Assembly: GCA_003990765.1 (NCBI GenBank)
Contig: RBNJ01000345.1
Span: 1-32,477 of the forward strand
Reading direction: 5' to 3'
DNA: 32,477 nucleotides
Source of the DNA: Jimgerdemannia flammicorona
Taxonomy: Eukaryota
Below the pieces are notes generated by a model. It was given only the letters and a program-made list of their open reading frames with translations. It made no database searches and was not told the DNA's origin. Positions 3,526-32,477 of this stretch are shown here, piece by piece (positions within the stretch are counted from its first letter, which is position 1; the number at the start of each line of letters is the position of its first letter). The position numbers and the translations under genes are program-made.

Positions 3526-4694
3526 AGAGTTATATATAATATAATTGTTACCAACTATTAACAAATAAGATATTGCAATCACTAGTTCTTTTTCTGTATT
3601 CTGCTTAAGTATAAAATCAGAACTATATCACTAGTACTTCATGAAGATAGTTCTATATAAGATTTTAGAGTATACAATCATATCAGCAATCTGAGTATAA
3701 GATGAGATATACTAATGTAATAATAAGCTCAAAAATGTAGAATAGTTATTATAGTACATATAAACTTAGTTTTGCAATTAAGAAGAATTTTATCCAAATT
3801 ATTACAATCTATACTCAGTATTATTACTCATCTCTCTGATTCTACCTCTGGCTATTATATAATAAGAAGCTGCTATCTGTAAATTCTAACCACCTATGTT
3901 ATAAGATAAAACCACTATTGTATTATAAGTATTAAAGAAAGAACCACCATTAGTCTAATAATAGACTTGTTAAGATGGACTCAAAGCTCTCATATAATTA
4001 GTATGGATATTTATTTAGATATATAATAAGGAAGTTATATTAGCTCATGAAGACTAAGTGGAAGTCAATATCTATACTATTGATCCTGGTGTTCAAATCT
4101 TTCTAACATAGTACTCACTTATATAAAGTCATGGTTACTTTGGTTAAAATGATATCTAGTATAGAATCTAGCTACTACTTGTCCTTAATGATCTCATATA
4201 ATATATCTGCCAGATATCTGTATAACAATAAGACAAGTTCTGTCATATATAAGCATATATACTAATGGATATATAATCTGATTAATGAGGTCCATAAGAA
4301 AGCAGTATTGTGGCTCCTGAGAATGTTTGATGTAGTGATTATCCCTTGGTTCAACTCATATTCTATGGCTGAAAAAAAGAAGAAAAAGTTGAACAGATAT
4401 ATGGTACAGAAGATTCTAATATAGAGTTATGGGCACTTCCTCAACTGGCTACTCAGCAAGGCCAAGGAGCTGGGTAAAAAGGTTGTGATTGTATCTGAGG
4501 CATATATATCAAAGACCTGTAGTGCATGTGGGTGGATCAATCACAGCCTGGGTAGTCAAAAGGTTTTCCAATACTGGGATTGCAAATGAGTAGTAGATAT
4601 AGTACCTGAGGAATCTTTCTTTGGGGAATTTTGTTCCTCAAGGAGAGGTCTTTGGGCTTTGCTTGATGAAGCTGCACATAAGTGTACGGGGTGA
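3526..4694 (+). pseudogene. tnpB: Fanzor2 (eukaryotic TnpB-like RNA-guided RuvC nuclease), pseudogenised
   Basis: RVIYN (3526), RuvC-I IDPGVQIFLT (DPG 4082-4090), NLINEVHKKAVLWLLRMFDVVIIP, VIVSEAYISKTCSACG (E 4497, CxxC 4518-4529), KVFQY..C and decayed (N)STxGIFLW/ALLD corresponding to NGARGIFLRALLD. Many stops and small indels. Confidence 0.9.
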
Positions 4695-4862: not shown

Positions 4863-5570
4863 GAAAGCATTGTTTGTTCCGTTGACATCGAGCATGTTCC
4901 GCACAAGCTTTTTCGTACCAAAAGATATGATGACAATTTCTTCTAATTGTGGGGTGGCGGAAACGATTTCTGGGTTCGTCCAGTACGATGTCACCAAAAG
5001 ATCATCTTGGTCTCTTCCGTCTGCTATCGTAAGACTGCCGAGGCAAAGGATGGACATGTTCGTCGCATAGGTTGCCTACATGTGTGTGGGGCGGGATAGG
5101 TAATTACACGCGTGAATCGACAGTCTGACCCTATCGCCTGTCAGTCTGTTGCTCGCCTGCCCAATACTTTCCGATATAACGCTCACTCACCCATTCAACG
5201 CGTGGAGGGCCACATTGAGCCTCTTTGCCTGGAGGAGTAAATGCAGGTAGCGCCAGGAATGTGAATGTTGCCAGGTGGTAAAATAGATGTTCCGAACACG
5301 GCAGGTAATTATGCATATATGCATATGTATATAATTCCGTCCCAAGTTTGGGAGGCTCATGGTTGTAAACATTACAGAATTGGGCTATTGTTGCAGGGTG
5401 CACCATCCACCACCACCTACCAGCTGAAATGGTGGCTTGCCGATCCTGTCGATCTTGGAAATCTTTCTGTTGACTGAAGGCCCAGATTGTCGTCTAAGAA
5501 AGATATGACATTACAAGTCTATTCGACCACCACAAGTCCATTGGCAAAATACCCATGCAATTGGGCCCAT
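4863..5570 (-). CDS. Candidate spliced host gene of unknown function, divergent from LETM1, 3'-truncated
   Basis: Phase-compatible GT-AG-bounded exons 5493-5421, 5228-5191 and 5075-4863 (possible first exon 5570-5553) give TTIWAFSQQKDFQDRQDRQATISAGKEAQCGPPRVEWATYATNMSILCLGSLTIADGRDQDDLLVTSYWTNPEIVSATPQLEEIVIISFGTKKLVRNMLDVNGTNNAF. No family recognised. Confidence 0.4.
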
Positions 5571-5695
5571 AGTCCCGGTTTGGGGGCTGTGCGACCAGTG
5601 ACGACTGAGTCAGACAAACGAAAATTAGATCCCGATCAAACCCTTGACATTTATATAAACACCCACCCTCGAGAGAGCCGTAGCCCATTCCTATA

Positions 5696-8882
<3,187 letters not shown>

Positions 8883-9138
8883 ACAATTTTTGGGGAGGGT
8901 AAGGTTAACATAGAACAAAAGTGTAAGTATGGAGCTTAGATTGTACCGTACTGATCTTGAAGAAATGTCTTTTTCTTTGTTCATTGGCATGAATTTCTTG
9001 AAATAAAAAGCTCTTTCCGTTGCTCGAGATTTATACTGTGGTGGCTTAGCATTGCGATTTCTGTTGCCGTATGATGTCACCCACAGCACGCAACCGTAAA
9101 CAGTGGACCTCTACCCCAAACCCTCCGGAAACACCGAA

Positions 9139-11162
9139 ATGTCCTTGCTTGCAACCCGAGAACGCCGCCCAAATGCCGGTAGTCGGTGAGCCCCGTCGTG
9201 TTAAATTGCCTTGGTTCACCACGCCGAGTTCACTTGAGCACATTGACGAACATTCCGCCCTCATGGTTGCAGAATGCGAGCCTTGCTCGAGGAGGAGCTA
9301 GAGGTGGAGGAGCTGTTTCAAGAGGTGGACGATGATGTCGAATTTGAGGTGCAAGGTATAATTTTACGTCTCTTGAGGGCATTTGACTGTTCGCGAAGGA
9401 AAATTGGCTCACCACGGTCATTAACCCATTCGTACAGGTGAGGACGAAGATATCGTCGATTCTGACTTTGACGTGAGCTCTGGAGATGAAGAGGCGGGCA
9501 AAGAAGCTGAAGGCGCGGCTGAAGATCAAGCCATCCATGTGGAGGAGAAAAAGGTGCGTAAATCGCGGTAGAGTGTTCATTATACATATGTCAGTCCCTA
9601 AAAATTCATTTTCCTTTCTACCAGAAACGCAAAGTAGTAGTGCCTGTAATAAAGAAGCGGCCGCTTCCAAAACGCCGGACGCAACCAGAGGCGCCCTCGT
9701 CAACGACAACTTCTATCCCAACATCGTCGTCGATGTCCACGCCAGCAAAAAGGCAAAGAACAGAAAGACCATCAGTAGCTCCTACAAGTGAGTCAGTTTT
9801 TTTTAAATATATATATTAAAATCGAGGAGTTTGTTCCTTTGCTGTGGGCTCGGCATATTCAGCTTGCCACCTCTATTGCCCGATTCTACAAAAGCCACTC
9901 CTGCCACACGCAAGTCTTCTCGCGCCACAACCGTCAAGAACCGTGAATGGGTCGAGGAGCAACTGAAAGAGTATGAAATCAAGAGGGTAACTTTTGTTCC
10001 GAGTACGATCTAAAATTGATTTTCTGGCTATTCCCGAATGTCGATTGTGTTATATCTCTCGACCATTATTTCTAAACAGGCCGCCCAACCCAAACGTGAC
10101 CGACCTACAATTCGGGCGCTCACACAACAAGAGCTCCTCGCCGAAGCTGCAATCACGGAGGAGCAAAACAAGGCGTCCCTCGAAACATGGCAACAAATGG
10201 AAGCCGACCGGATGCAAAAGGCCAAAAAGAAAACCGACACGGGCATTATCGGCCCCTTCGTCCGGTTCTACTCGTTCATGGATGGCGACGAATCCAAACG
10301 GCCAAAGGGACGCAAGGCATTGGTGATCGAATATAAGCCCGGCACGGGCAATGTGGTCAGACAGATTGAAGATGAGAAGGTGAAGCAGTGGATAGCGATG
10401 CAGGAGGCCGAGGAATGCGACGTCGTTGGGCGGAACCTGGTCAGCTTCGAAGGTTACGATGGCGACGAGGCCGACGACGGGGGACGTAGTGGCGGGGCGG
10501 CGTACGACGGGAACGGCGGCGGCGTGCATAGGGGAGAGAACGACCTAGATGAGGAAGATCTCGAAACCGCGGACTTGATCCCAATGCTTAAGAACTGGAT
10601 CGAGCGGCCTGCGCGACCGCGGAAACCGCTCATGTGCCCGATTACGGGGCTCCCTGCTCGGTACAAGGACCCCAAGACGGGCGTCCCTTACGCGAACAAA
10701 GATGCCTACCAGATCATCCAGCAGATTGTGGGGCAAGAGTTCGTATGGTCAAGCGTGCTCGGGGCCTACGTGCAGAGCGAGAACCAACAGTTGCCGCGGG
10801 GTGCGCCGGAGGGCTGGGCGAGAGCTGGGGCAGGGAAGGTGGTGGATGAGGAGGATTGGCCTGAAGGTGAGGGAGATGATGTGCCAGGGTGGTTGAGGGA
10901 GAAGAGGAGGATGGAGCGGGAGGCCAAGGATCAGAAAGAGAAGGAGCGGGTGAAGGAAAAGGACACGAAACGGTCAAGGAGTGAGGGTGAGGAGGTTGGG
11001 AAGAAAGATGGGGAAGGAGAGCAGCCGGATAACGGGAAACGCGAAGAGTCGGGCAAGGTTGAGGGTTCTGCAGGGGACGGATTAAACAAGAAGATAATCG
11101 AGGGAAGAGAGAGCAGGAGGAGGGGCTTGCGGAATAGCGTTACGATTATTGTACAGGAGTAA
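9139..11162 (+). CDS. VPS72: Vps72/YL1 (SWR1/SRCAP H2A.Z-deposition subunit), 6 exons
   Basis: Exons 9139-9185, 9273-9355, 9438-9553, 9625-9787, ~9895-9986, 10080-11162. Motifs: RERRPNAGSRMRALL, DIVDSDFD, RKSSRATTV, LTQQELLAEAAITEEQN, and YL1-C CPITGLPARYKDPKTGVPYA. Confidence 0.93.
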
Positions 11163-11407
11163 AGATACGGTGGCAGGCCACCTCAGCTATGTGTTTGTCA
11201 ATACATTCTATAGATACACGAGCTCGCGTATTGGGCTTTTCTACATACGACTTTTACATGCAATCGATTTGCTGTGATTGGGTTTGTTTGTGTCCATCTC
11301 CAAGTTTGCGATTGGTCGTGGCATCTGCGATTGAACGGCAAGTTTGTTCCAACCAAAGACAAATCGTATATATGCCACCCTCACCAAATCTACATCCAAA
11401 TATTTTT

Positions 11408-13931: not shown

Positions 13932-16900
13932 ATGAATAGTATAACTAGAATTTTATCTTTAAACATCAATGAGTCATGGAGTATAATGAGGTATCAGAAT
14001 ATTTTTAGCTAGTTAAAGGGGCTAGATGTAGATCTGTTTCTACTACAGGATATTGGATGTAATGTAGACTTAAATGTGCTAGACTGAACAAGAGAATAGG
14101 GTAGAGCAGCTGTTTGGTAGAGCTGGGTGGACATTTTGGTTAAGAAGGATAAAGGAGATATTAGTGATATTGAATATTGGAGAGACAGGGTGATATGGGG
14201 GGTATGGCAGAGACCAGGCTGGAGCCCCTTGATTATTGGGTCTTGTTATTGTCTAGTGGAAAGAGGAGAGTAAGTAGAATGGATAAGAGAACTTTGAGAT
14301 ACAGAGATACTGGTAGAGGTGGAAATTGACTGTTTAGGCAGAGACTTTAATATAATTTGAGATAGGCTACTAGACAGAACTGATAGAGAGAGAGAAATGA
14401 CTAGTAGGAGTAGAGGTATTGAAGATTGAGAGGAGATTAAAAGATTGAGCTCTTTGGTAGATACTGGGTAACTTGGATGAGGGGATCATAGAATCTATAC
14501 TCACTAGATAGTAGAGTTGAGCTTGAGAATTGACTGGATCTTAACTGCAAAGTGCTGAAGTGAGGATGTCTAGAGTCCTCTGGAGACAATTTGGTACCTA
14601 TGGTCTGACCATTGGAGTCTGCTTGGTTGTGGGAGGTTTGAGAGAAGTAGAGAGAGACCTGGACATTAGTACCTCAATATCTCATTGCTGGGAGAGTTCT
14701 CATTGTGAGATGTATAGATGGTGGACATAAGTGTCAGGATTCTTGGCTGAAGAGTGAGGGGACTGGAGATCAGGAACTGATAGAGCTATTTGAAATCAGA
14801 TACTCAGAAGTTCTGGGGAGAGATAGGGAAGATGAGGGGCAATAAGAGAAGGAAGTAACTAAGATGGGCCTCTTAGAGATTGGAGAAGCTACTGATGGTC
14901 TGGGCCAATCTTCTGAACAATGGGGAGAAGGAAGACTAGAGGGTTCATCAGGCCTGGCTTGAGGTGGAGGAGCTAAAAAGAATGCTAAAGTAGGAAGAAG
15001 ACTTATAAATAAAGAGTATAGTAGTCCAGTTGAGATAGCAGAGCATAGAAGAGGGAGAGTAGCCCACAAAGTTCTTGTTAAGACTTCTTTAAGTAAGGAG
15101 GGTGAGACAATAGTGAGAGATAGTATTGTATAAGGCAGGAGAGATAGTGGTTGAAACTCTGGAGATCCTAGACCAGTTGAGCTCAAGGTGAGAACATTTA
15201 TGAAATAAGAAGAAGAGTGAGAAAGATGATCTGGACATTGAATGATATCTAGAGGACTGGTATCCAGACTCAGCAGAGGGCCTAGGGGACTTTAGAGCTT
15301 CTATCCAGAGAGGGAATATTTGTAGAGTTTTGGTAATAACTAGTCTTGGGAAAGCTTCTGGAGAGGATAGGCTGTCTTGAGATTTCTGGAAGAAGATGGT
15401 GAGTGTGGAATTGACTCTAGAGGAAATAATGTAAATGTGCAATAAGATTATTAGATCAGAAGAGTGAATTGGGAAACAGAGACTAGAATTGATAGCTCTG
15501 TTGTATAAGAACAAGAGAAGACAAGAGGAATGGAAAAATTAGAGGCTGATCATACTTTTGGATATAGATTATAAGCTGGTTATGAAGATACTGATAGGAA
15601 GGCTGCAAGGAGTGGTATAGCAGATATTGGGGGCTGAATAGAGAGACTTTATTAGGAGATATTTAATAAGAGATAAGACAGCTTAGGTGTATAGAGTTAT
15701 CAAAGAAGCATGGGCTATAGGGATCAATAATTGGCTAGTCTTTCTGAACCAGAAGAAGGCATATAAAGGGTCTAGCAAGTATGGCTGATAGGGGTGTTGA
15801 AGTATGTAGAGATTCTCTTAGAGTTCTGAAGATCATTGATCAGGCTACTAGAGGAAAGTCAGGCAGTGATATTAGTAAATAGATATAGAGGGGTTTTATT
15901 TTCTCTAGGCAGAGAAGTGCTATAAGAAAATCTGCTATCACTAATCCTCTATACCCTCTCTCTAGAGTCTCTACTGGATAGGATTAGGTATAAGGTAAGA
16001 TGGTTAAATATTCTTAGAGTGAACTAGAAGATAGAAGTCTTTGCAATAATATGGTGGTTAGGCTGGGCTCTGTAGAAGATATGTATGACTGTACTGAAGA
16101 GAGCTATGGAATGGTATGAGGAATATATCAGTACTAAGCTGAACTAGCATAAGTATGAGACCCTGGTATTAGAAGGAGAAATAGTAGAGAGAGATATGAT
16201 TGGATCAGTAGTTTTAGCAGAAGAGGTAGTCTACTATCTAGAAATCTACTTCTCAGTATATAGGTCTCTGCTACCTCAAGAATAGTGAGAGCAGTGATTA
16301 GTAGAGTGAGGAAATACTCTCCTGGGGTGGAGTGACTGATACATCTCTCTAGCTAAAAGAGTAATAGTGCTGAATGTATACTGAATACCCAAGCTATAGT
16401 ATCTGAAGTATCACTTGGATTTTCTGGTATAGATGGTCAAGAGACTATTGAAGATGGTCAAGATCTGAATATGGGTAGAATAGTGGAGTCAGATAGGCTG
16501 AGAGGTGATACATAACATTGCTAGTAAAATAGAAGAGACTAAATTTGGTAGACTCTGTCAAGTATCTACATTACTTGAGAGCATGGTAGTTGAAGTAAGC
16601 TAGTATATTGAGGGGCTGTGAGTAGATGCCACTTATGCAGAGAGTATGAGAGATGCAGTTTTCTCTCTATAGTATATCTGGTGATCTGTTTTCTCTAGTA
16701 GTATTAGAGAGATACCAGAAGATGTACTTTAGGGATTTCTGGTAGAGAGTGATTGATGGTATATATTGAATTGATATCAGATAGTAGAGCAATAAAGAAG
16801 AGACTAACTGAGGACCCAGGATATAGAGGTGGGATTACCTTCTGCTAGAAGGTACACTGATGGATAATTTTAGTCTAAAGGATAGTATGAAGTATCTTTG

Positions 16901-18054: not shown

Positions 18055-19605
18055 TGTCATGTAGTAGTCACTGAGTCCTTCAAATATATTAGATTCTCTT
18101 CAAGGTATATCTCTTAAACTAACTCAAGTTTGTTATAAGCAAGTTCTTATTAGAGTACCTTTCCAAGGTCTTATAGTCCTCAAACTTCTTATCTTTAAAC
18201 TATCTTATTATCTCTTTGCTTGCTTGTAAGGAATTGTATATGTAAACCAGAACTGACTTTATTTCAGAGGAAATAAGAGGGGTATTTATACAAAATATAA
18301 TTCAATAGTTGCTAAGATATAAAGCTAAATATAAATTCCAATAACTAAAATAAAATGCCAGAACATGGAGAACTGCTAAGTTTAAGTATTGGCACAGATG
18401 GTTATATAGATCCAGGATACTGGTATAATTTCAGTGATACAGGAAAATAGTGCTGGAATAATTCTGAGTCACATCAAAATGCTAGTAGTGGAACAGCTGT
18501 TATACAGAAAAAGAGTGCTGGCATAATTTGGTGTAACCAAGGAACTTAGAGCAGAATGTTCAAGACCATAGGGGCTTCATCCTCATCTGAGGTCAGAATG
18601 TCTTTGAAAGAGATGAGGTCTGTAAATTTGTCATTGTCACATAGGTTGCACATTTCATATATATCGCACAGGATGACATCATCACTAATGATGTCATCAC
18701 ATTCAGTGGCAGCAGAAACAAGGAGGTCTGGAGCTCTCCAGTCTATGAGATTCTCTTTCATGAAATAGGAAACAAATGTGGGATCTTGAGGAGGTCTAAC
18801 CTGGATGCTTAGGCCTTGGAATACTGAGATCAATCCTTACAGGAATTGGTCTGAGTTGTCCTGGAGGATGGGATGCCAGAAGTCTTCTACTTCATCACTA
18901 TTGAGAGTAATAGTGGACTGGGCTTCTGTAGCCACTCTGGCTTCTAATATATTGATATGGTGGGCTGACAGATCTCTAAAATCTGAGACTCTAACATACT
19001 CCAAGTTGAGGATTAACCATGGTACATGCCTGAAGATCTGGTGAATCTTCTTAGCTATCCTTATCTCATATATATCCATGAGAATGATATCTTGTAATTC
19101 TTGAGGGCTGGTCTGTGGGAACTCCTGGCAGAGGAGGTTTCCTATTTTGTACTCCTGCCATATTTGGAGGTATTTGGTAGATCCTTGTTTCCATTTTATA
19201 GTAGTAGAGAATGTAATGATAAGAGTCACCAGTATACAGATTAACACTAGGAGTCCTTCTTGTATAGATCTTCATAACTCTTCTGATGTCTTGAAACATC
19301 CTTTCTTTGACTGAGGTGTCTTGGTAGTTCCTTGATCTTGAGGTTTGGCAAGCAGCAGGCATTTCATTTGTGGTAAGTCTTTGAGCTATTTTGGGATTGG
19401 TAGATCTTATTGAGTTGCTGCTACTGTGGTTCCTTGATCCTTCTTTTATATTTCTTAAGATACTCATACTGTGGTCACAATAACTCACAGTTGGTCATCA
19501 TTACTTATCTTGTATGCTATATAATCTTCTTGTGCTTCAATCTAGTGACTTGTAAGGAAAGGCTGTCTCCTATACTGATGTTATCATTCTGGGATCACCA
19601 TTACA
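18055..19605 (-). repeat. 3' LTR of element A (1551 bp)
   Basis: Plus-strand termini TGTCAT...ATTACA. Preceded on the minus strand by the purine tract AGAAGGAAGA. TATAAATA (18290-18283) and AATAAA (18263-18258) on the minus strand. Colinear with the second copy. Confidence 0.85.
18546..19488 (-). pseudogene. ORF of unknown function inside the LTR U3 region (~270-315 aa)
   Basis: Track ORFs 19488-19066, 19247-18837 and 18833-18546 join into one frame once the 8 bp present in the other LTR (32136-32143) are restored and one TAA is read through. Confidence 0.65.
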
Positions 19606-19615
19606 TCTTCCTTCT
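19606..19615 (-). other. Polypurine tract of element A
   Basis: AGAAGGAAGA directly before TGTAAT on the minus strand. Confidence 0.7.
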
Positions 19616-19651
19616 GAATAAGGATCTTCTTGAGTGTCCTTATTCATTAGT

Positions 19652-19958
19652 TCAGTTCTGAAAAATTTGCTGATCCCATAACCTCTGGCAAGGGGTCAAA
19701 AAGTGGTATTTATGGGCTAGCATCTTCTCTATATATTTTGGCATAATGGTGAAGGGGTCACTCCCTTCATATAGAGTAAGGGCCTGATTCTAATCTTGAC
19801 TAATCAGTTGATGGTTTGAACTCCTCTGGCTTTGAAAGTCTTATGGATAAGTAGTTGCAGGTGCTGTATTCCTTAGAGAATAGTCCAGACAGATATCCTG
19901 CTGGTCACAGGATATGCTGTTACAATTTGCAGACTAGAACCTTACAGGTGGTCATCAT
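19652..19958 (-). pseudogene. Small accessory ORF between integrase and PPT (element A)
   Basis: AGYLSGLF...EEFKP../..LYEGSDPFTIMPKYIEKMLAHKYHF with one frameshift. Similar to 30755-31018. May instead be a C-terminal extension of integrase. Confidence 0.5.
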
Positions 19959-21167
19959 ATTTTGCTTCTCTTGTATAGGTTCATGGTACTTCTTGAGTCT
20001 GTTCTTATATACCATGGTAGGTAGTATAGTCTCTGAGATTTTTCTAAGCCAGAAGGTAGTTCTCTTGATATCTTGTATATAGAAGGGTCTTTTCCATTTG
20101 GGCTCCAGTTTTCACAACTATAAGGTTTCTATCATATTTTGATACAGTAGGACCTTTTCTTCAATTTGGATGGGTTCTAGAGTCTTGTGATTCTTTTCTG
20201 CATTCTTCTTTATCAGCGCTTGTGACTTGATGATGTAATCTTCAGCCTTCTTCCTGATTTGGTATAGCCTCCAGATTTCTGCATCAACCTGTCTCCAAGT
20301 TAGGTCTAGATTTGTAGCTAAGGTTCTATCAGAATCTTCTTCTCCAAAGAGCAGTTCTCTTGGGGTAAAGTGTATACTCTGTGACCATATGTATCATAGG
20401 ACAGAGAGGGTGGTTGGGAGGGAGTTATCCCAATTCTCATATGTATCTGAGATCTTTGCCAGGATGTTCTTGAGGGTCTTGTTGGTTCTCTCTATCTGTC
20501 CATTTCCTTAAGAGTGGTATATAGTAGTTTTGATGTGTTGAATCTTATATTTCTGATACATTATCTTATAGAATCCATTGACAAATTCTGTGCCATGGTC
20601 TGTGGTAATTTGTTTCAGTGTCTTGTAGTGGCAGATGATTTCTTAGTACAGGAAGTTGGCTATAGAGAGGGCATTGGCTTCTTATAATGCTCCTGCTTCT
20701 ATCTATTTGGTAAAGAGGTCTATAATAACTATAATATAGCAGTTTCCTAATAGTGTTACTAGTAGTGGCTCAATGATATCTATTACAATGTAGTGGAAGG
20801 GGATAGGCTCAATTCTTGATGACCTAAGTGCCTGGTCTTGCTGATCTTATCTCTGTTTTTGGTACTTGTCACACCCTTTGACAAATTGGCACAGGTCTTT
20901 TTCCATTTTGGGCCACCACATGGTTCTTCTTGTCTTGTTATATATGTTAGCTCCTCCTAGGTGTCCTTGTTTATGTACTTCCTTCATTACTTGATACTTT
21001 TTGTGTTCAGGTATTACAAGCTTTCCTCCTTTTCTGAGTATGGTATTGTCTAGTTCAAACTGTTTCCAAGTTCAGTTGATAATAGTGATTGTCCAGAGTT
21101 TGAGGTAGTTGGACATATTCTGCTGCCCAAGGTAGCTGATTAATCCATAGTATAACTCCTTATTCAT
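19920..21167 (-). pseudogene. Integrase of element A, in a separate frame from RT-RNase H
   Basis: MNKELYYGLISYL.., HHCC region (VHKQGHLGG..WWPKM..CDKYQ), IVIDII, ITTDHGTEF, YHS*GNGQIERTN, KLEPKWK.PF. Confidence 0.88.
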
Positions 21168-24100
21168 GTTGAATAGTCTTGATGAGAGTATTTTGAGGTA
21201 TCCTTGAGAGTGTATCAGTATTGATATTGGTTCTTCCTAAGTAGTGCTTGACAGTACAGTCATACTCTTACAGCTTTTAGATCCATCTGGTATATATTCC
21301 TTTGGAGTTCAGAGTGTGGAATAGCCAGACAAGAGCAGAATAGTCTGTTTGAATAGTGAAGTATTTCCCAGCTAGATAGTAGTGGAACTTGTCTATGGCC
21401 CAAACTACTGCTAAACATTCAAGCTTGCATGACTCATAGTTCTGATCTGCTCTGTAGATACCTCAGCTTATATAGGAGATGACATATTCATGTCTATCTT
21501 TCTTCTGAGCTAGGACTGCTCCAAGTCCTATGGTACTTGCATCTGTCTACAGGATGAACTCTAGGTTCCAATCTGGTCTTCTAAGGATAGGTACTTGGGT
21601 CAATCTGGTCTTAAGTTTATTGAAGGTTTCTTGGTATTTCTTGGTCCATTCAAATTTGGTTTCCTTCTTCAGTAGCTTATAGATAGGTACTGTAATTTTG
21701 GAGTATCCTTTGATAAATCTTCTGTAGTAGCTGGCCAGTCCAAGGAAGGCATAGACTTCTGTGGTTGTTCTGGGTCTCAGATAGGCTGCAATAGCCTCAA
21801 TCTTCATGAAGTTTGTATAGATTCTGGTCTGATTGATGAGGTGTCCTAGGTAGGTAATTTCCTGAGCTATAAACTTACATTTCTTGAGCTTGATATAGAG
21901 GCCATACTCCTTGAGCTTCTTGAGAGCTAGCTATATATGGTTGATATGTTCCTGTGTAGTATTGCTGAAGATGATCACATTATTAACATAGATAAAGAGC
22001 CATTTTCCAATCTCATTGCTAAAAACTCTGTTCATCATTCACTGAAAACTTGCTAGAGTATTGTACATTCCAAATGGCATTTGCAGGTAGATATAAGTGG
22101 CATCAGGTGTGATGAAGGCTGATTTCTCACTGGTATCTTGAGTGAGACCAATCTGATGGAAGTCTGAGAACAGATCCAAGGTAGTGTAGTATTTGGCTTC
22201 ACTTCTAAGAGTGGTAAGGATTTTTTAAATATTTGGTAAGAGCTGCCTATCCTTCTTAGTGATTGCATTGAGCTTCCTATAGTTAATGTAGAGTCTTAGT
22301 ACAAACTCTCCAGACTTACTTCTTTTCTTTGGGGTGAGGACAATAGGTGAAGTCCAGGGACTGATAGCTTGCTTGATGATTCTGGCTTCTTCTATTTCCT
22401 TGAGTTCTGCTCATAGCCATTCTTTGTAGGCAGGTGGTATAGGTCTGGCTTTCTGATAGATGGGCTTGATATCACTAGTGTCAACTTTGTAGTAGTACTT
22501 GGGTTCTTGATTGTAGATATCCCTGAAGTCTGTAGTAAGTACTCCTTCATTCTGATACAGGATCTTGAGAAGTTGTTCTTTCAGGGGAAAGTTTTCTCCA
22601 ATGATATATATGTGCTTGTTCTGGTCCTTGTCTTTCTTGTACTCAAGTTTGGTAATCTTGATAGCAGTATAGACACTTTTTCCAGTAGATCCAAAGCCTT
22701 GTTCTCTTCTCAGTCTTGATGAGTTTGATGGCTTCAGTGATCTTGGGCTTCTTGATTTCATAGATCAGCATCTGGTTAATCCTGTCATACTTCTTGACTT
22801 CAAATAGGGTGGTGGAGTTGTGATTCCTAACTATGAGGAAGATCTCACCAGTGTAATCAGGGTTAATTACTCCTCCTTCAACTGAGATTTCACTTTTGGC
22901 CAGACTGCTCCTGATCTTGATAATTCTGATATGGTTCTCTGGCAGCTTGACTCCAATTTCAGTATCAAGTAGGGTGGTGGTCTGTGGTTTAAGGGTAGCA
23001 TCTTGAATGCTGGCAAGGTCTATTCCTATGGCTTCTTCAGTCTTATATTCTGGGATCTTAGCTTCAGGGTAAAACTTCTTGACCTTGAGGGTGATGTCTG
23101 GTTCTTATTCCTCCTCATTATCACTGTTAGCTTGAAGCTTGGGGGGCTGGTCATCTTCTTCAGCTTTCCTTTTTGCTTCAGTGGCTTCTTGCTCATACTT
23201 CTGTTGACAGATTTTCCTGGCTTCATTGATACAGGACCAGCAGTCATTTAGGTGTTCAGAGCAGTACATCCTAGTACCATAGGGGTATCTTCCTTGAGAG
23301 GCATAGTCATCAATGATCTTGGTATACTACTGCTCATCTGTGAGCTTAGGTGTCTTGTTCTTATTCTTATTCTTATTCATCTAGTGCATGAAGACTTCTG
23401 TATCCTCTTCATCTCCTTCCTCCATATTTGGTAAAACTCTCTTGTAGATATTGATGGAGACTCATACCTTTCTTCCTCTATAATTGATCTGCATCTTCTG
23501 GGTATTGAGGTCAATGATGGCCTTGGCCTTGTGAAGCTATTGGTTGTTAATGAGAATATCATAGTTAGTGGTACTTGTAACAATTATATCTACTGGGATA
23601 GTAGCTCCTCCTATCTTGATGGAGACTTCTCAGATTTTGCCAAGGGGGGTAGCTCATGTATTATCTACTGTGACATAGACCATCTTGGTGGACTCTTTAA
23701 TATTCCAGCCTAGGCAGTCAATTGCCTTCTTGCTCATAAGGCATCCTCTAGCATTGGTATCAATGATGGCATTAAAGATACAATCTTCAATCTGACATGA
23801 GATATAGGCTGATGTCTTGTACTGGTCTTTAGATTCTTTATCTGAGTTTTTGGATTCTTCCTGTACATTGTGAGCTTCTACAATTTTGTACTCTTGATTC
23901 TTGGTAGTAGTTGCAAGTCCTACTCTTAACTACTATCTGAAGGCAGGGACTTCAGCTAGCTGTCCAAAAGTAGCATTGACCTTCTGTTCTTTGAGGTCCT
24001 TATGGATATTATACTGGTAGATCTTGGTCTTATGCAGCTTCTGTTTTTTCTTGCTTTTCCTTCCTTCTGAGACTGGAGTAGTGTCTTTAATGATTTGGCA

Positions 24101-25279
24101 GGCAGCTTCATCTAACTCCATGTCTTGATCAATCTTCTTGGGTTGGGTCTTACTTTGGATAGTGATAGCTGGGGTCTTCTTTAGTCTTCCAACTGGCTTA
24201 CTATTGCTCTTCTTATCATAAGGCTTGGACTGGGTTCTGGTATCTTTAGTAGTAGGGTAGAATTCAAGCTTCTTGTAGTATTTTTCATCATCAGTATCAC
24301 TAATCTCCTCAATGACTACTGCATTGGTTTGTTCTCTGGTTCTGCTAGCATTGCTTGGTTGGGCTTTGCATCTTATTTTGATTATGCAATTCTTTGCATA
24401 GTGGCCTTCTTCTCTATATCTGAAGCATGTGATATTACATTCTTCTGTAATAGCTGCAAATCTCTGCACTAGTCTCCTGTTGGTGCTTTGGACTTCTCTA
24501 ACAATATTACCAAGGTGTGCAGTCATCTCAGTGAACTGCTTGGCAAGTTTCTCCACTGGATCAGCTTTGGTTGCCTTGGAGGTAGGTGGGAATAGTTATC
24601 TGTTTACAACTGTGGTGAGTATAATACTAGTTGGCTTTGATGGCTCTATCTTGATATCAGTTATTTTCTCTATTAAGTATTCAGTATGGTATCTGGCAGT
24701 CCAATATCTCTGTGTAAAGACTACTTTCTGATCAAGGGTCAGTGCAGCTGGAGTAGACCAGATTACTAGGGTAATTTCAGAGTGAACTTCTTTGAGGAAG
24801 GTTGAATCTGCTATTTGTTCCTTGAGGGCATTATTGTAGCCAGTCAAGACATCTGATGACAGATTCAGATATAGAATGAGTTGGGATCTTCACTGAGTTC
24901 CTGGTAGATAGTATTGAGTTGATCCTTAAGAGCTTGCTTGATCTCTTCAGTATAGTATATTGTTCTGAGAAAGGCCTTCATGTTGGCAAGTTTGGCTGTA
25001 CTATTATCAGCAATAGTGGCTATATTGAACTTGTCTCTGGTAGATCCTCTGAGGCTAACTGATAGAAGGACCAATTGTATATCTACACCAAGGGTTCATA
25101 TAGTGGCAAATTGTTCAAAGTCTTTAATGAAGATCAGGATTGACTCTTCAGTAGTATATCCATAGAATGTGGGAAGACACATTTCTATCTTATCTTGAAT
25201 TCTTGCAGGGGTGACTCTTGTAGTCAGAGTAGTTATTGTAGTGGTTGTTTATTTTTCAGCTTAAAAGTGAGGGATTCAT
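21160..25279 (-). pseudogene. pol: gag-protease-dUTPase-RT-RNase H of element A
   Basis: Zinc knuckle CFRYREEGHYAKNC (~24390-24430), AIIDTNA (protease, ~23760), SPWTSPIV, LYINYRKLN, IYVNN (YVDD, ~21985), AFLGLASYYRRFI, TDAS..GLGAVL, KLECLAVVWA, DTLSR. Confidence 0.92.
22681..23090 (-). pseudogene. dut: dUTPase domain of element A (between PR and RT)
   Basis: LKVKKFYPEAKIPEYKTEEAIGIDL..IRSSLA..GGVINPDYTGEI..DRINQM..REQGFGSTG, corresponding to trimeric dUTPase motifs I-V. Confidence 0.9.
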
Positions 25280-25287
25280 CTTAAATC

Positions 25288-25305
25288 ACCAGCCAATGGG
25301 CACTA
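25288..25305 (-). other. Primer-binding-site-like sequence of element A
   Basis: TAGTGCCCATTGGCTGG (likely decayed TGGTGCCC...) 3 nt inside the LTR. Cognate tRNA not identified. Confidence 0.5.
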
Positions 25306-25308
25306 AGT

Positions 25309-25799
25309 TGTCATATAGTAGTTGCTGAGTTCTTCAAATATGTCAGATTCTCTTCAAGATATATCTCTTAGACTAACTCAAGTTTATTATAAGCAAGTTC
25401 TTATTGGAGTACCTTTCCAAGATCTTATAGTCCTCAAACTTCTTATCTTTAAACTATCTTGTTATCTCTTAGATTGCTTGCAAGGAATTATATATAAGTG
25501 AATTAGAACTAACTTTATTTTAAAGGAAATAAGAGAGATATTTATATAAAATATAATTCAATGGTTGCTAAGATATAAAGCTAAATATAAATTCCAATAA
25601 CTAAAATAAAATACTAGGATATGGAGAACTGCTAAGTTCCAGTGTCAGTATAGATGGTTGCACAGATTCAGAATACTGGTATAATTTCAGTGATATAGAA
25701 AAATAGTGCTGGAATAATTCTGAGTCACATCAAAATGCCAGTGGTGGAACAGCTGTTATATAGGAAAAGAGTGCTGGCATAATTCAGTATAACCAAGGG
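25309..25799 (-). repeat. 5' LTR of element A, part 1
   Basis: Colinear with 18055-18543. Confidence 0.92.
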
Positions 25800-26253
25800 T
25801 GTAACAATTTCACAGTTATATTTAGTCTTAGTATATTTTTACATCTTTTAGTTAGTCTTTTCTAGTTATTTCTTGAACATTCTACTATGTTCTGTCACCT
25901 TCTACTTACTTAGAAACCTTTTCTTTGTACCTAGATACCACTAGAACATTCTTGTCTTTTCTTGGTGCTAAGCATCTTATCTTAGCTAGTTATGGAACCT
26001 TTTGGAACATTGTAGAATAGTATTAGTCAGCTCTGCCAAGAACCTATTTCTTGGTATTTCTCTTTTTTTCCAAGATCCTTCTGGATCTTTCTTTCAGATC
26101 ATATATAAATATTCTTGTTCTCTGCCTAAATAAAACTCAGAATATTTTCTCTCTGAGAATACTTGAACCTTTAAGTAACTCTTCAAGCTACTTTAGGCCA
26201 ACTAGAACTTCCAGATTTAGCCACTTCCTCTTAAAGAAACTAGAATCATTACA
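25800..26253 (+). repeat. 5' LTR of element B
   Basis: TGTAAC...ATTACA, direct repeat of 31030-31493. Confidence 0.95.
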
Positions 26254-26255
26254 CT

Positions 26256-26269
26256 TGGTAGCAGTGGTG
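26256..26269 (+). other. Primer binding site (initiator tRNA-Met type)
   Basis: TGGTAGCAGTGGTG 2 nt after the LTR. TGGTAGC is complementary to the 3' end of eukaryotic tRNA-iMet. Confidence 0.75.
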
Positions 26270-26343
26270 TTATTACACCTTACCTTATTAAGAAACCTCA
26301 CACAAATCCAGAAACCAGTCACAACTAGTTACACAAACCCAAA

Positions 26344-27299
26344 ATGAGCTACAAAGAGTCAGCCTACTAGTCAGACCCCTCTGCTACAGAAGAAGCAGGA
26401 GGATAGCAACTTGGCATAGAAGATATGATCAATACTATGGCTCACCAAATTCAAGAACTTCAAGTACAACTAGAACAGCAGAAAACACAAACTACAGGAA
26501 CATTATATCCTACCATAGTACTAGTTAGTTTTAAGTTACTCAAGCTAGATACCTTTGACAGCCATCAAGGAGGACTATCTATAGATGCATGGACCTTTCA
26601 ATTAGACCAATACTTTGAACTTATAAGAATGAAAGATAACATGCAAGTCCAATTTTCCACCACACTTCTCTGAGGAAATGTAGCCATCTGGTGACACAAT
26701 CATATCATAGTTATATCTGTACACTTATATGCATAAATCAGAGATTGGAAAGCTTTCAAGAGAGCCCTTCACAAGCAGTTCAAGCCTGCTAATGCCACCA
26801 AGCTAGCCATAGACAAGCTAGTGAACATCAAGCAACTCAAAATGCACAATTCTTATCAATCCAACTTGAGCTACCAGTGGTATCTGAGGATGAAAAGATA
26901 GACTGCTATATCCAAGATTTGAAGGGAAACACACAAGTTAAGGTCAAGCTAGAAGAGCCCAAAACTCTTGATAAAGCCATGAGAATCACCAATAGATTTG
27001 ATATCATCATTTTTAGCAACCACTTTGAGCCAGAACACTACAAGAAGAACCACTTCAAGAACTGCCACAGAAACCAACTAAGGACAGTTGGTCTGACACT
27101 AATAGACTTAGACACTATGAACAAAAAGAATACCAAGCTCACCTCTGAAGAAAAGGACTGTCTGAAGAAATCCGGAGTCTGTTTCTTCTGTCACCAAATA
27201 GGACACATTGTAACAAAATGTCCTAGGAAGACTAGCAAACCCTCAAGACCAGTCACCATGTTGTCCAAGGATACACCTGTCAATCCCACTACTAGTTAA
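26344..27299 (+). pseudogene. gag: gag of element B
   Basis: LDTFDSH..IDAWTFQLDQYF, EDEKIDCYIQDLK, LIDLD, knuckle CFFCHQIGHIVTKC. Confidence 0.88.
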
Positions 27300-27305
27300 C
27301 TTGAG

Positions 27306-27716
27306 CTCAAGGTCAAGAAGCTTCATCTGAAGGCCCAGATTCCTTAATATCAAACAGAAGAAGCCATTGGTCTTAACCTACATTCAGTTAAACAAGTTAC
27401 TATTCCAGCCAAGGGTCATACTCTAGTGCCTACTAGAATTGCAGTTCAATGCCCTGAAGGACATTATGCTAGAATTGCACTATGATCAGGACTTAGTGTT
27501 AAACATCATTTAGATGTAGATGCTGGTATCATTGACCCAGACTTTCAAGGACAAGTTCAAGTTTTGCTTGTCAACCAGAAGGATCAAGACTATACAGTTA
27601 AAGAAGGAGACCAAGTTGCACAAATGATCCTAGAAAAAGTCAGTTAACTCAAGATTACAGAAGTCCAAGAACTCCCTAAAACTAAACAAGATCAAAAGGG
27701 TTTTAGCAGGACTGAT
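27306..27716 (+). pseudogene. dut: dUTPase domain of element B (between gag and PR)
   Basis: LKVKKLHLKAQIP*YQTEEAIGLNL..IAL*SGLS..AGIIDPDFQGQV..GDQVAQMI..QDQKGFSRTD. Confidence 0.92.
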
Positions 27717-27749
27717 CAAGCAGCAAGTCTTAGTGAAAATTGAGCTCAA

Positions 27750-30719
27750 GCTATGCTCATTTTCAAAGGCCTAGTTAAAGGAAAAGAAGTTCAAGTACTT
27801 ATAGACAGCAGAGCTGCAGGAAACTTCATCAATCAGAATCTCATCAAAAGTCTCAAGATTCTCACCAAGCATACCCAAAAACAATAGTATAGTCACTATA
27901 GATAGTACTCTATACTCCATTGAGTCAATTGCTGCCAAACTACCCATCAAGATCCAGAAATATTGGGAGTAAATAGACTTCAAGGTTATTCTACTGGGAG
28001 ATCATAACCTGATCTTAGGAAAACCCTGGCTTATGAAACATAACCCAGATATTGATGAATGTAAGAATGAAGTTACCCTACTTCAAAATGGAGTCAACAT
28101 TACAATCAAGACAGACAAGACTATAAGTAAGACCCAGATTGCAATATTGTTAGCTATATAGTACAAAAAAGTACTCAAGAACCCTTGATTGATCAAATAT
28201 TTGATACTCTCAAGAATGCCAAGTACTTCACTAAGTTAGACCTCATGTCAGAATATCACCAGATTTGAATCAAGTCAGAAGACATTCTTAAGACTACATT
28301 CATGACCCCCTTTGAACTCTACGAATTCCTGATCTTAGTATTTGGTCTCATCAATATACCTACCACATTCTAGACCCTGATGTACAAGATATTCAAGAAC
28401 CAACTATTTATTTTTCTGTTGGTATATCTTGACAACATTCTGATCTTTAGTGCAACTAAAGAAGAACACCTCAAACACATTCAAATAATCCTAGAGATCC
28501 TGCAAAAATACAAGCTTTATGCTAAGCTCAAGAAGTGTAAATTCTTTAAGAAACAAGTTGAATACCTTGGCCACATTATCTCTGCATAAGGAATTCAAGT
28601 AGACCTATACAAAATAGAAGTAATTAAAGAATAGCCCATTCTATCAAACCTCACAGAACTTCAATCCTTCCTTGGTCTAGCTGACTATTACTGTTGCTTT
28701 ATCAGAAACTTCTCTGGCATTGCTGAGCCACTGACTAACCTCATGAGGAAGGCCCTGCACTCAGACCACTATGTACCCTACACCTGGGATCTCTTCTGTC
28801 AACAAGCCTTTCAAGAACTCAAGAATTGCCTGACTCATACTCCAGTCCTATATAATGCAGATCAAGGCCTAAAATTCACAGTTACTACTGATGTATTGAA
28901 TTTTGCCATTGGAGCAGTTCTGTTATAAGATGATGGCAAAGAATATTGCTCTATTGCTTTTAAGTCCCACAAGCTGGCCCTAGCTGAACAAAAGCTAGCT
29001 ACTCATGAGAAGGAACTACTAGCAATAATATATACACTAGACTACTGGTAATGCTATCTAGAAGGTATTGAGTTTGATGTTATTACTGATCATCAATCCC
29101 TCAAGTATATCAACACCCAACCTACTCTGTTACATCTACAAGCCAAGTGGAGCCTCAAGCTTCAAACCTTCAACCCAATGATCATCTATAAGTTCAGCAA
29201 GACACTTGTAGTACTAGATGCCTTATCAAGATACCCAGACCTTGCTACAATCATGCAAGTTACCTTGGTATCAGAATTTCTAGACCAAATCAGATAAGCT
29301 TATAAAGAAGGCACAGTTGCCACTAGAGTTTTCTTGAATGAACTCAAGGATATATATACTGTCAAGAACAATCTGATCTATCATCAAGACCAAGTCTATC
29401 TACCTGAAAACATGAACCTATGCTACAAGGTTTTGCAAGAACACTATGACTTCTCTCTTACTGGTTATCTAGGAATTGAGAAGACTGTCAAGAACATCCA
29501 ACACTGCTACTATTGGCCAAACATGGTCAAGGAAATCAAGAACTATATTACCAGCTGTGATCTATGTCAGCATAACAAGTCTACCAATCAAGTGTCTACT
29601 GGTTTGCTATAACCACTGTCAATTTCTACCAAGAAGTTTGAGTAAGTCACTATGGACTTTGTAACTCAACTACTATGAACTCAATCTGATGCTAATGCTA
29701 TTGTCATATTCATTGACTGCCTAACTAAGACTATGGTTACTGAACTAATCACTACCAATGCTACTATACCCAAGATTTCAAGAATCTTCTTCAAGTCCAT
29801 CTTCCATTACTATGGTCTACTACAAGTAATTGTTAGCAATTGTGACCCCAAATTCACCAGTCACTTCTGGCAAACTCTCTTCAAGACTCTGAAAACCCAA
29901 TTGGCTATATCTACTGCCTTTCACCCACAAACTGATGGACAAACTGAGTACATGAACAGAACTCTAGAACAAATACTTAGAAACTATGTTTCTTACAAGC
30001 AAGATGATTGGGACATCTATCTGACTTATGTGGAGTTTGCATACAATAATGCTGTCCAATCATCTACTGGTCTTTTCCCTTTCCAGTTACTCCACGATTA
30101 AGATTCTGAGACCCCTGCAAGTCTATTCCCTTTCAAGAAAACCAGTCAAATACAAGTCTCAACTACCAAGAACCTTACAGATAAAATAGATGAACTACTC
30201 AAGATTGCTACTGTGAATCTTCAGAAGGCTCAATAGTATTAAGCCAAGTATACTGATAAGAAATGTCATAATGTTACTTATACTATTGGAGATCAAGTCC
30301 TACTGTCTACTGAGAATCTCAAGATACAATCTCAAGTCAACTGCCCTTCAAATAAGTTCCAACCTAAGTATATTGGACCTTTTGAGATCACTGAACAAGT
30401 CTCTGTATCCTCCTACTGCCTCAAGCTACCTGAAACCATGAGAGTATACCCAGTCTTTCATGTGTCACACCTCAAGACCTGGAACTAGTCACCACCCTAC
30501 TCTGGTCAAATTCCTAAGCCTTCTGCCCCTATGATTATTGAAGACTATATTGAGTATGAAGCTGAGAAAATCCTTGACAAATGAATCCACTACTGCCATC
30601 CTGAATACCTAGTTAAGTAGATGGGTTATCCTAAATATGATGCTACCTAAGAACTACTGGTCAACCTCAAGAACTCTCAAGATCTAGTTCAAGACTTTGA
30701 GATAAAATACATTACCTAA
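27750..30719 (+). pseudogene. pol: pol of element B (PR, RT with internal deletion, RNase H, integrase, chromodomain)
   Basis: VLIDSRAAGNFI, LILGKPWL, FTKLDL, VYLDNILIFS, SFLGLADYY, EKELLAI, YYWPNM..CDLCQ, STAFHPQTDGQTE, KYIGPF, chromodomain EYEAEKIL..YLVK*MGY (30552-30701). Confidence 0.93.
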
Positions 30720-30754
30720 TCTCTGTAGTGACTTTCTTGGATTATTGATGACCT

Positions 30755-31018
30755 ATGGTAATAACTAGTGCCTTATACATCAGAAGTTTACTTTGGGACC
30801 CCAGAATTAGCAGAACATTTAATGAACAAGAAGTCCACCAAAATGAAGCTACTAGCTGAGTTCAAACCCCTCTCAGTTGGTTAGTCTGATAATAGGCCCT
30901 CTATCCTATATGAGGATGGCTAATCCCTATCAATATACCAATTCAAGTTTGAGAAATTTTGGTTAAGTATATCTAGTTTTGTGTTACTTAAGAACTCAAT
31001 GAGGACATTGGTTCTTAA
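30755..31018 (+). pseudogene. Small accessory ORF between chromodomain and PPT (element B), 87 codons plus stop
   Basis: MVITSALYIRSYFGTPELAEHLMNKKSTKMKLLAEFKPLSVG*SDNRPSILYEDG*SLSIYQFKFEKFLVKYI*FCVT*ELNEDIGS*. Internal stops are TAG/TAA, the type C-to-T decay produces. Similar to 19652-19958. Confidence 0.5.
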
Positions 31019-31029
31019 GGAGGGAGGGA
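31017..31029 (+). other. Polypurine tract of element B
   Basis: AAGGAGGGAGGGA immediately before the 3' LTR. Confidence 0.9.
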
Positions 31030-31493
31030 TGTAACAATTTCACAGTCATATTTAGTTTTAGTACATTTTTACATCTTTTAGTTAGTCTTTTCTGGTCATT
31101 TCTTAAACATTCTACTATGTTCTGTCACCTTCTACTTACTTAGAAACCTTCTCTCAGTGCCCAGACACTACTAGAACATTCTTGTCTTTTCTTGGTACCA
31201 AGCATTTTGTCTTAACTAGTCATGGAATCTTTTGGAACATTGTAGAATAGTATTAGTCAGCTCTACTGAGAATCTATTTCTTGGTATTTCTCTTTCTTTC
31301 CAAGATTCTTCTAGATCTTTTTTTCAGATTATATATAAATATCCTTGTTTTTTGTCTGAATAAAGCTCAGAATATTTTCTCCCAGAAATCTTCTAAGAAT
31401 ACTTGAATCTTTAAGTAACTCTTCAAGCTACTTTAGGCCAACTAGAACTTCCAGATTTAGCTACTTTCTCTTAAAGAAACTAGAACCATTACA
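31030..31493 (+). repeat. 3' LTR of element B
   Basis: Direct repeat of 25800-26253 with 10 extra bp near 31381. Confidence 0.95.
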
Positions 31494-31498
31494 AAGAG

Positions 31499-32463
31499 AC
31501 TTAGAGTAGAATGTTCAAAACCATAGGGGCTTTATCCTTATCCAAGGTCAGGATATCTTCAAAGGAGATGAGGTCTGCAAATTCATCATCATTGCATAGG
31601 TTACACATTTTGCATATATCATGCAGGATAATATCATTGCTGATGATGTCATTACATTTGATGGCAGTGGGAACAAGGAGGTCTGAAGCTCTCTAGTCTA
31701 TGAGGTTCTCTTCTATGAAATAGGGGACAAATGTAGAGTCTTAAAGAGGTCTAACCTAGATGCTTGGGTCTTAGAATACTGAGATCAATTCTTACAGGAA
31801 TTGGTCTGGGTTGTCCTAGAGGATGGGATGCCAGAAGTCTTCTACTTCATCACTATTGAGAATGATAGTAGACTGGGCTTCTGTAGCCACCCTGGCTTTT
31901 AGTATATTGATATAGTGGGCTGACAGATCTCTGAAATCTGAGACTCTAACATACTCCAAGTTGGGGATCAACTATAATGTATGCCTAAAGATCTGGTGAA
32001 TCTTCTTAGCTGTCCTTATCTCATATATATCTATGGGAGTGGCATCTTGTAACTCTTGAGGGCTGGTCTGTGGAAACTCTCAGTAGAGGAGGTTTTCTAT
32101 TTTATACTTCTGCTATATTTGGAGGTATTCAGTAGCAATAGTGATCCTTATTTCCATTTCATAGTAGTAGAGAATATAATGATAAGAGTCACTAGTACCC
32201 AGGTTGACACTAGGAGTTCTTTTTGTATAGGTCCTCATGGCTCTTCTGATATTTTGGAACATTCTTTCTTCAACTGAGATACCTTAGTGGTTTCTTGACC
32301 TTGAGGTTTGGTAAGTAGCAGGCATTTTATTTATAGTAAGTCTTTGAGCTATTTTGAGATTGGTAGATCTTATTAAGTTGCTGCTACTGCAGTTCCTTGA
32401 TCCTTCTTTTATATTCCTCAAGATATCTATACTGTGGTCACAATGACTCACAGTTGGTCATCA
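31499..32463 (-). repeat. 5' LTR of element A, part 2 (contains the second copy of the LTR ORF, ~31501-32451)
   Basis: Colinear with 18544-19500. Similarity stops at a poly(T) run (32464-32477). Confidence 0.92.
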
Positions 32464-32477
32464 TTTTTTTTTTTTTT

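Follow-up and report, generated by a model that had tools for sequence, protein, structure and literature searches.

Do two retrotransposons with unlike ends and differently arranged pol genes share a small gene, and if they do not, what do they share? The question is raised by a 32,477-nt stretch of DNA from Jimgerdemannia flammicorona, referred to below as the window, in which two gypsy-type elements (here A and B) display the same short peptide motifs just upstream of the polypurine tract (PPT). According to the original prediction, made from the sequence, these motifs belong either to an undescribed accessory gene of ~90-100 aa or to a conserved cis element, exchanged between co-resident retrotransposons and possibly travelling with dUTPase as a counter-defence module. 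The layout of the two elements, the DNA that they share, its reading frames and its distribution among relatives are considered in turn.

Two nested Ty3/gypsy elements

Comparison of the window with itself, together with reading of the element ends, uncovered two LTR retrotransposons, one nested in the other. Element A is carried by the minus strand. Its 3' LTR covers 18055..19605 (TG...CA, 1551 bp), its internal region 19606..25308, and its 5' LTR (25309-25799 and, from 31494 on, the rest of the window) is cut in two by the insertion of element B. The latter, a chromovirus on the plus strand (25800..31493), has LTRs at 25800-26253 and 31030-31493 and is bordered by a 5-bp target site duplication (AAGGG/AAGAG, 25795-25799 and 31494-31498) whose copies differ by one transition. 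Since B inserted in the 5' LTR of A, it is the younger element at this locus.

Both elements display the LTR pair, PBS, PPT and PR-RT-RH-INT order of Ty3/gypsy LTR retrotransposons. The internal region of A carries PBS, gag, PR, dUTPase, RT, RNase H and integrase and is devoid of a chromodomain; a Pfam scan of its read-through translation returned protease, dUTPase, RT, RNase H and integrase. For element B, the scan returned gag, dUTPase, RT, RNase H, integrase, SH3 and chromodomain, and a protease-like motif follows the dUTPase. The two elements are as dissimilar as had been announced: no match between their LTRs appeared in the window self-comparison, and their pol layouts differ (PR-dUTPase-RT in A; dUTPase-PR-RT-...-chromodomain in B). 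At the amino acid level, identity was 34% for RT/RNase H, 24% for integrase and 33% for dUTPase.

Both elements carry heavy RIP-like damage. Transitions made up 221 of the 227 differences between LTR pairs (18055-19502, 25309-25798, 25797-26253 and 31027-32465), 138 of these 221 lay in CpA context, and just 2 CpG were left in the LTRs. This damage accounts for the many TAA, TAG and TGA codons found in pol. In the chromodomain of element B, tryptophan codons are read as TGA, TAG and TAA.

The locus is eukaryotic nuclear DNA, probably of fungal origin. A GC-rich island (5000-11200, 50-57% GC) is flanked by AT-rich mutated repeats and holds host genes, namely a YL1/Vps72-like ORF (10020-11162) and a LETM1-like piece (6681-7175). 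Strong GC skew (+0.41 to +0.53) extends over the 6 kb between 12000 and 18000, where the two ORFs tried against Pfam gave no match, and a 74% repeat links 1154-1496 to 14215-14557.

A matched core before the polypurine tract

In each element, an untranslated stretch separates the end of pol from the PPT. That of A (minus strand, 19616..19919) begins after the first stop in the pol frame (TAA, 19920-19922) and ends at the PPT AGAAGGAAGA (19606..19615), and the ORF path earlier proposed for this element (19652-19958, minus strand) falls in its post-pol stretch. That of B (plus strand, 30720..31016) extends from the pol/chromodomain stop (TAA, 30717-30719), which is followed by five stops within 18 codons, to the PPT AAGGAGGGAGGGA at 31017..31029. 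Directly 5' of each PPT stands a hairpin, with an 8-bp stem AATAAGGA/TCCTTATT in A (19617-19644, minus strand) and a stem CTTAAGAAC.../...GTTCTTAAG in B (30987-31019, plus strand); the stem sequences are not alike.

Between pol stop and PPT, A and B contain, in one and the same orientation, a conserved core of ~60 nt, delimited by local alignment and exact blocks at 19767..19823 in A (minus strand) and 30858..30913 in B (plus strand). Four exact blocks follow each other in the same order, so that the DNA similarity noted at first is real: GAGTTCAAACC (A 19813-19823; B 30858-30868), TTAGTC (A 19798-19803; B 30881-30886), AGGCCCT (A 19779-19785; B 30894-30900) and CTATATGA (A 19767-19774; B 30906-30913). 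The chain of exact matches includes a further common block, TGATGACC, located in A just upstream of the untranslated stretch (19950-19957, minus strand) and in B at 30746-30753 (plus strand).

Smith-Waterman alignment of A 19606-19990 (minus strand) with B 30720-31026 gave 45 identical columns out of 61; the other columns held 7 mismatches, of which 5 were transitions, and the gaps of 5 events. Its score of 36 compares with 19.7±2.3 for dinucleotide shuffles (maximum 30), none of 1000 reaching the observed value. Likewise, the collinear chain of exact matches summed to 58 versus 28.5±7.2 in shuffles (0/500 reached 58), and an alignment that tolerates transitions was collinear over ~300 nt (0/1000 shuffles). 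Among 626 window segments taken on both strands, the two post-pol stretches were each other's best match, the runners-up scoring 31 and 29.

These figures, together with the identical anatomical position and orientation of the core in both elements, argue against a chance resemblance of two AT-rich sequences mutated by transitions. Yet scores of 34 and 35 turned up in unrelated loci totalling ~90 kb of real DNA, which is heavier-tailed in score than shuffles, and the margin of the core over chance is therefore modest. Other observations point the same way: blastn of whole A against whole B did not have the core among its reported matches at E<=10; the end of the A pol (…ATACAAGAGAAGCAAAATATGATGACCACCTGTAAG, 19941-19976, minus strand) recurs with a score of 33 some 100 nt inside the element's own LTR (19484-19515, minus strand); and an unrelated metagenome contig fits the three-block pattern, near the rough number of matches expected by chance. 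About 10% was allotted to chance with the matching position as prior expectation, and we consider this explanation improbable. The comparison involves two sequences, both heavily mutated. The DNA homology and the matched position of the core are taken here as established.

Reading frames of the post-pol stretch

The peptide chain that first drew attention to this stretch was partly recovered. A and B both have EFKP and LYE; in B, the motif A-x-Y-I-x3 ends with L instead of F, and EKFWL stands where EK-x-L was announced. The first motif of B is in frame 30701 and EFKP in frame 30702, so that B, like A, requires a frame change, and this change falls before EFKP. Both reading paths are interrupted by stops, including a TAG within the TTAGTC block, in the EFKP frame, that is common to A and B.

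Stop codons are dense in all frames, some 2-3 times more so than in equally mutated pol. The sense frames of A contain 7, 7 and 8 stops in 127-128 codons and those of B 6, 8 and 11 in 101-102 codons, i.e. 5-11% of codons, versus 2-3% in the equally mutated pol frames (32 in 1130 codons for B, 7 in 366 for the RT of A). No open frame was found in the post-pol stretches of A and B, sense or antisense, the longest open run being 45 codons. Moreover, the diagonals of the exact blocks are 24, 26 and 25, and that of TTAGTC is 21 by spacer-length count. They thus occupy three phases modulo 3, AGGCCCT and CTATATGA being out of phase with GAGTTCAAACC, and no frame pair translates all blocks alike.

Protein comparisons agreed with this picture. 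Alignments in the frame pairs earlier proposed scored 26 and 21, values equalled or exceeded in 273 and 399 of 400 shuffles, respectively, and are therefore not above shuffled controls, an outcome that the original prediction had itself named as a refutation. The highest protein score (36, reached by 14/400 shuffles) occurred in another frame than those proposed. For the read-through path, with X at the break in A, 172 of 2000 residue shuffles attained the local score of 31, and the semi-global score was at the null mean (1081/2000). Column identity by codon position was flat in the post-pol stretch (0.65/0.58/0.61 versus 0.64/0.72/0.49 in RT), so that codon-position bias did not materialize either; this test was given little weight because its nucleotide alignment is gap-rich and overfits. 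When the 89-aa translation of B, with X in place of its 2 stops, was run through phmmer against 1,835,955,588 representative proteins, it gave 0 matches at E<=0.001. Word searches with the integrase tail of A found protein matches of 123 aa and 103 aa, neither of which extends into the post-pol stretch, and the pol/integrase ORF of one relative ends in ...NRLKKYYPRQ, short of that stretch.

What a coding relationship looks like between these elements is illustrated by the N-terminus of dUTPase, the strongest A/B DNA match by blastn (66 nt, 79%, E 2e-8; A 23025-23089, minus strand; B 27306-27370, plus strand). There the residues are the same and third positions differ synonymously, which provides an internal control for true coding.

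A small sense-strand ORF of ~90 aa between pol and PPT, broken only by RIP-like mutation and one indel, could still be argued from the path itself: that of B has 2 stops in 89 codons and that of A 1 stop and 1 frameshift in ~83, near the stop density of mutated pol, and where the EFKP and LYE blocks stop, the differences are synonymous in this frame. Additional ORFs (aORFs) of unknown function are also known from the interval that separates pol from the 3' LTR in plant and some fungal elements (PMC7264820, PMC2864245). Against such an ORF stand the shuffled protein scores, the phase of the blocks, the common TAG, the extra frame change in B and the empty phmmer search; in addition, the loss of 1 nt at 19754, observed in some copies of the family, would again shift the frame. 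We regard this ORF as very improbable. The ~90-100-aa accessory gene is thus unsupported, coding signal being absent from the stretch, and the peptide motifs are a by-product of nucleotide homology. As matters stand, this negative result is the useful one: what looked like an accessory gene results from reading a short nucleotide match as protein and should be kept out of gene and protein-family catalogues.

Relatives, RNA structure and a possible 3'-end function

Searches based on RT returned 17 other gypsy loci, two from IMG/VR (L003 and L004) and fifteen from MAG or genome contigs (L010-L024), several of them partial. Neither the core nor a dUTPase match was present in any of the 17. The best sense-strand core score among them (31) was found in L013, 3 kb outside the LTRs of that element. 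Some of these loci are nearer to A or to B than A is to B. In an RT tree of 14 rows, A grouped with L003, L004, L013, L017 and L022, and B with L010-L012, L014-L016 and L018; the two groups, each with 97/97 support, were set apart, with A and B on long branches. Five of the 17 loci are omitted from this tree, four because the matched piece was shorter than 200 residues and L024 because it gave no match at the cut-off.

The fifteen contigs L010-L024, which are catalogued as parts of bacterial or archaeal genomes or MAGs, encode a Ty3/gypsy RT and look like eukaryotic DNA in prokaryote bins. Among them, L013, a 'chromosome 59' of 1.1 Mb, harbours a young and complete LTR element (LTRs 3746-3899 and 10088-10241, 99.4% identical). 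L003, an IMG/VR gypsy relative of A with 42% RT identity, has a third open frame of 609 codons after pol (5188-7017).

Further searches were less productive. An alignment of the integrase C-terminus found no relatives in IMG/VR, one of dUTPase yielded just 5 loci with a dUTPase match and without an RT match, and the core pattern had 0 matches in viral contigs and 0 in prokaryote genome contigs. A core-pattern match from a JGI metagenome (2 loci, one sequence) displayed no retroelement features and no Rfam family and was treated as chance. Four soil-metagenome runs, on the other hand, contained many short contigs of both families over the post-pol interval, one of 387 nt spanning 19429-19816, which indicates that this interval belongs to the families and not to the window copy alone. 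Where these contigs show G or C, the window copy tends to A or T. Among the differences listed, one C of the CCCC run at 19754 is missing in some family-A contigs from two soil-metagenome runs.

Could the core be a relic of recombination, left by template switching between co-packaged RNAs or by uptake of the same third sequence twice, and since decayed and functionless? Its restriction to two co-resident and phylogenetically distant elements, with no copy in the 17 other gypsy loci, would fit, as would the tolerance of 3' UTRs for insertions and the predominance of transitions among core mismatches (5/7), which matches the RIP-like decay of the LTRs. Given two copies only, a neutral patch would look much like a functional one. 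Yet the window contains no copy of the core besides those of A and B, and 5 gap events in 61 columns, together with weak similarity of the flanks, suggest an old divergence with selectively retained blocks and not a recent copy. A neutral origin is in our view possible but rather unlikely.

The reading that we prefer, at a probability of roughly 0.45, is that the core is a non-coding 3'-UTR segment, probably cis-acting, common to A and B through exchange or through a host-specific constraint. The conserved cis element named in the original prediction stands as far as the matched DNA, the position of A and B on opposite sides of the RT tree and the absence of the core from all 17 relatives are concerned; its cis function is something that we infer, as are its mode of action and its exchange between lineages. 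As A and B are distant and the closer relatives sampled lack the patch, exchange within this genome or host-specific constraint appears likelier than deep vertical descent. The core would then act in cis, as a stretch of genomic RNA or cDNA located at the element's 3' end, built of short exact blocks with spacers of varying length and serving replication or packaging, and the shared peptide motifs would arise from nucleotide homology in the untranslated stretch from pol stop to PPT. By analogy with Ty3 and Drosophila gypsy and their 3' primer-binding segments, it might offer a second contact for the primer-tRNA/Gag complex. The 5' PBS is long and ordinary in both elements and differs in sequence, which makes a supplementary tRNA site unnecessary and suggests that the two elements use different primers.

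RNA folding weighs, though not decisively, against this preferred reading. Predicted folds of the post-pol stretches show no unusual stability (z -1.0 and -1.7), the consensus fold of the two sequences is weak (-2.95 kcal/mol, 5 pairs), and pairing of the core with the 5' leader was not above shuffles (3/60 and 5/60). The double changes in the consensus fold are all transition pairs, which RIP-like mutation also produces.

A tRNA-like fragment of host RNA, captured during reverse transcription, was envisaged as well, since GAGTTCAAACC presumably resembles a T-loop/box B sequence and CTCAGTTGGTTAG of element B what we take to be a D-arm. These two motifs, however, stand in the wrong order for a tRNA. 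ARAGORN found no tRNA in the window, and none when its thresholds were set at 80%, a level at which 400 shuffles yielded 47 calls, and Rfam searches of both strands gave no tRNA match at E<=10, other families appearing only as sub-threshold noise. With no cloverleaf recognisable by ARAGORN or by the Rfam tRNA model, a tRNA-derived element was rejected, and capture of such a fragment is barely credible.

The suggestion that the core travels with dUTPase as a module was not substantiated: the dUTPases of A and B lie more than 3 kb away from it, on opposite sides of the protease. The sole link is co-occurrence, both features being found in A and B and neither in the 17 relatives, several of which are partial loci. 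A stronger version of exchange, in which two deeply diverged Ty3/gypsy lineages swapped or independently acquired a functional, host-specific 3'-UTR module needed at the RNA 3' end, seems unlikely to us. If true, it would suggest that co-resident retrotransposon lineages shuffle non-coding and accessory parts, perhaps dUTPase included, as modules. A working cis element would be a rare replication signal, neither PBS nor PPT, common to distant LTR retrotransposon lineages in one host, and evidence that LTR retrotransposons swap parts.

Several known systems invite comparison. The RNA transport elements CTE, RTE and MTE of retroviruses and retroelements are structured, cis-acting RNAs that reside between pol or env and the 3' LTR. 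The A/B core shares this interval with them; in contrast, no significant or shared structure was found for it. The aORFs of LTR retrotransposons occupy the same position in the element, but unlike them the A/B stretch displays no open frame, no conservation at the protein level and no database homologue. The dUTPase-bearing fungal Ty3/gypsy families of Postia, Phanerochaete and Tuber resemble A and B in that the place of dUTPase in pol varies, the PosPlaTy3 families having it at different places (PMC2864245). Both the aORFs at this position and the varying place of dUTPase in fungal gypsy elements are thus already in print (PMC7264820, PMC2864245). A shared post-pol motif is not mentioned in the available portion of PMC2864245, and no description of one was found in the literature searched on dUTPase-bearing fungal gypsy elements.

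A likeness also exists to elements with cis-acting sequences at the 3' end. Ty3 has a bipartite PBS with a 3' part and mini-Ty3 requires its 3' UTR in cis (PMC5371799, PMC11381356), and Drosophila gypsy has a 3' PBS, a second tRNA-Lys site (PMC1635307). Common to the Ty3 and gypsy segments are short blocks (7-12 nt) close to the 3' end of the genomic RNA, with a cis role during reverse transcription (PMC5371799, PMC1635307). Those of Ty3 are located in U3, whereas the A/B core lies upstream of the PPT, and the likeness is one of position: like a 3' primer-binding segment, the core is found in both elements within the untranslated 3' part of the genomic RNA.
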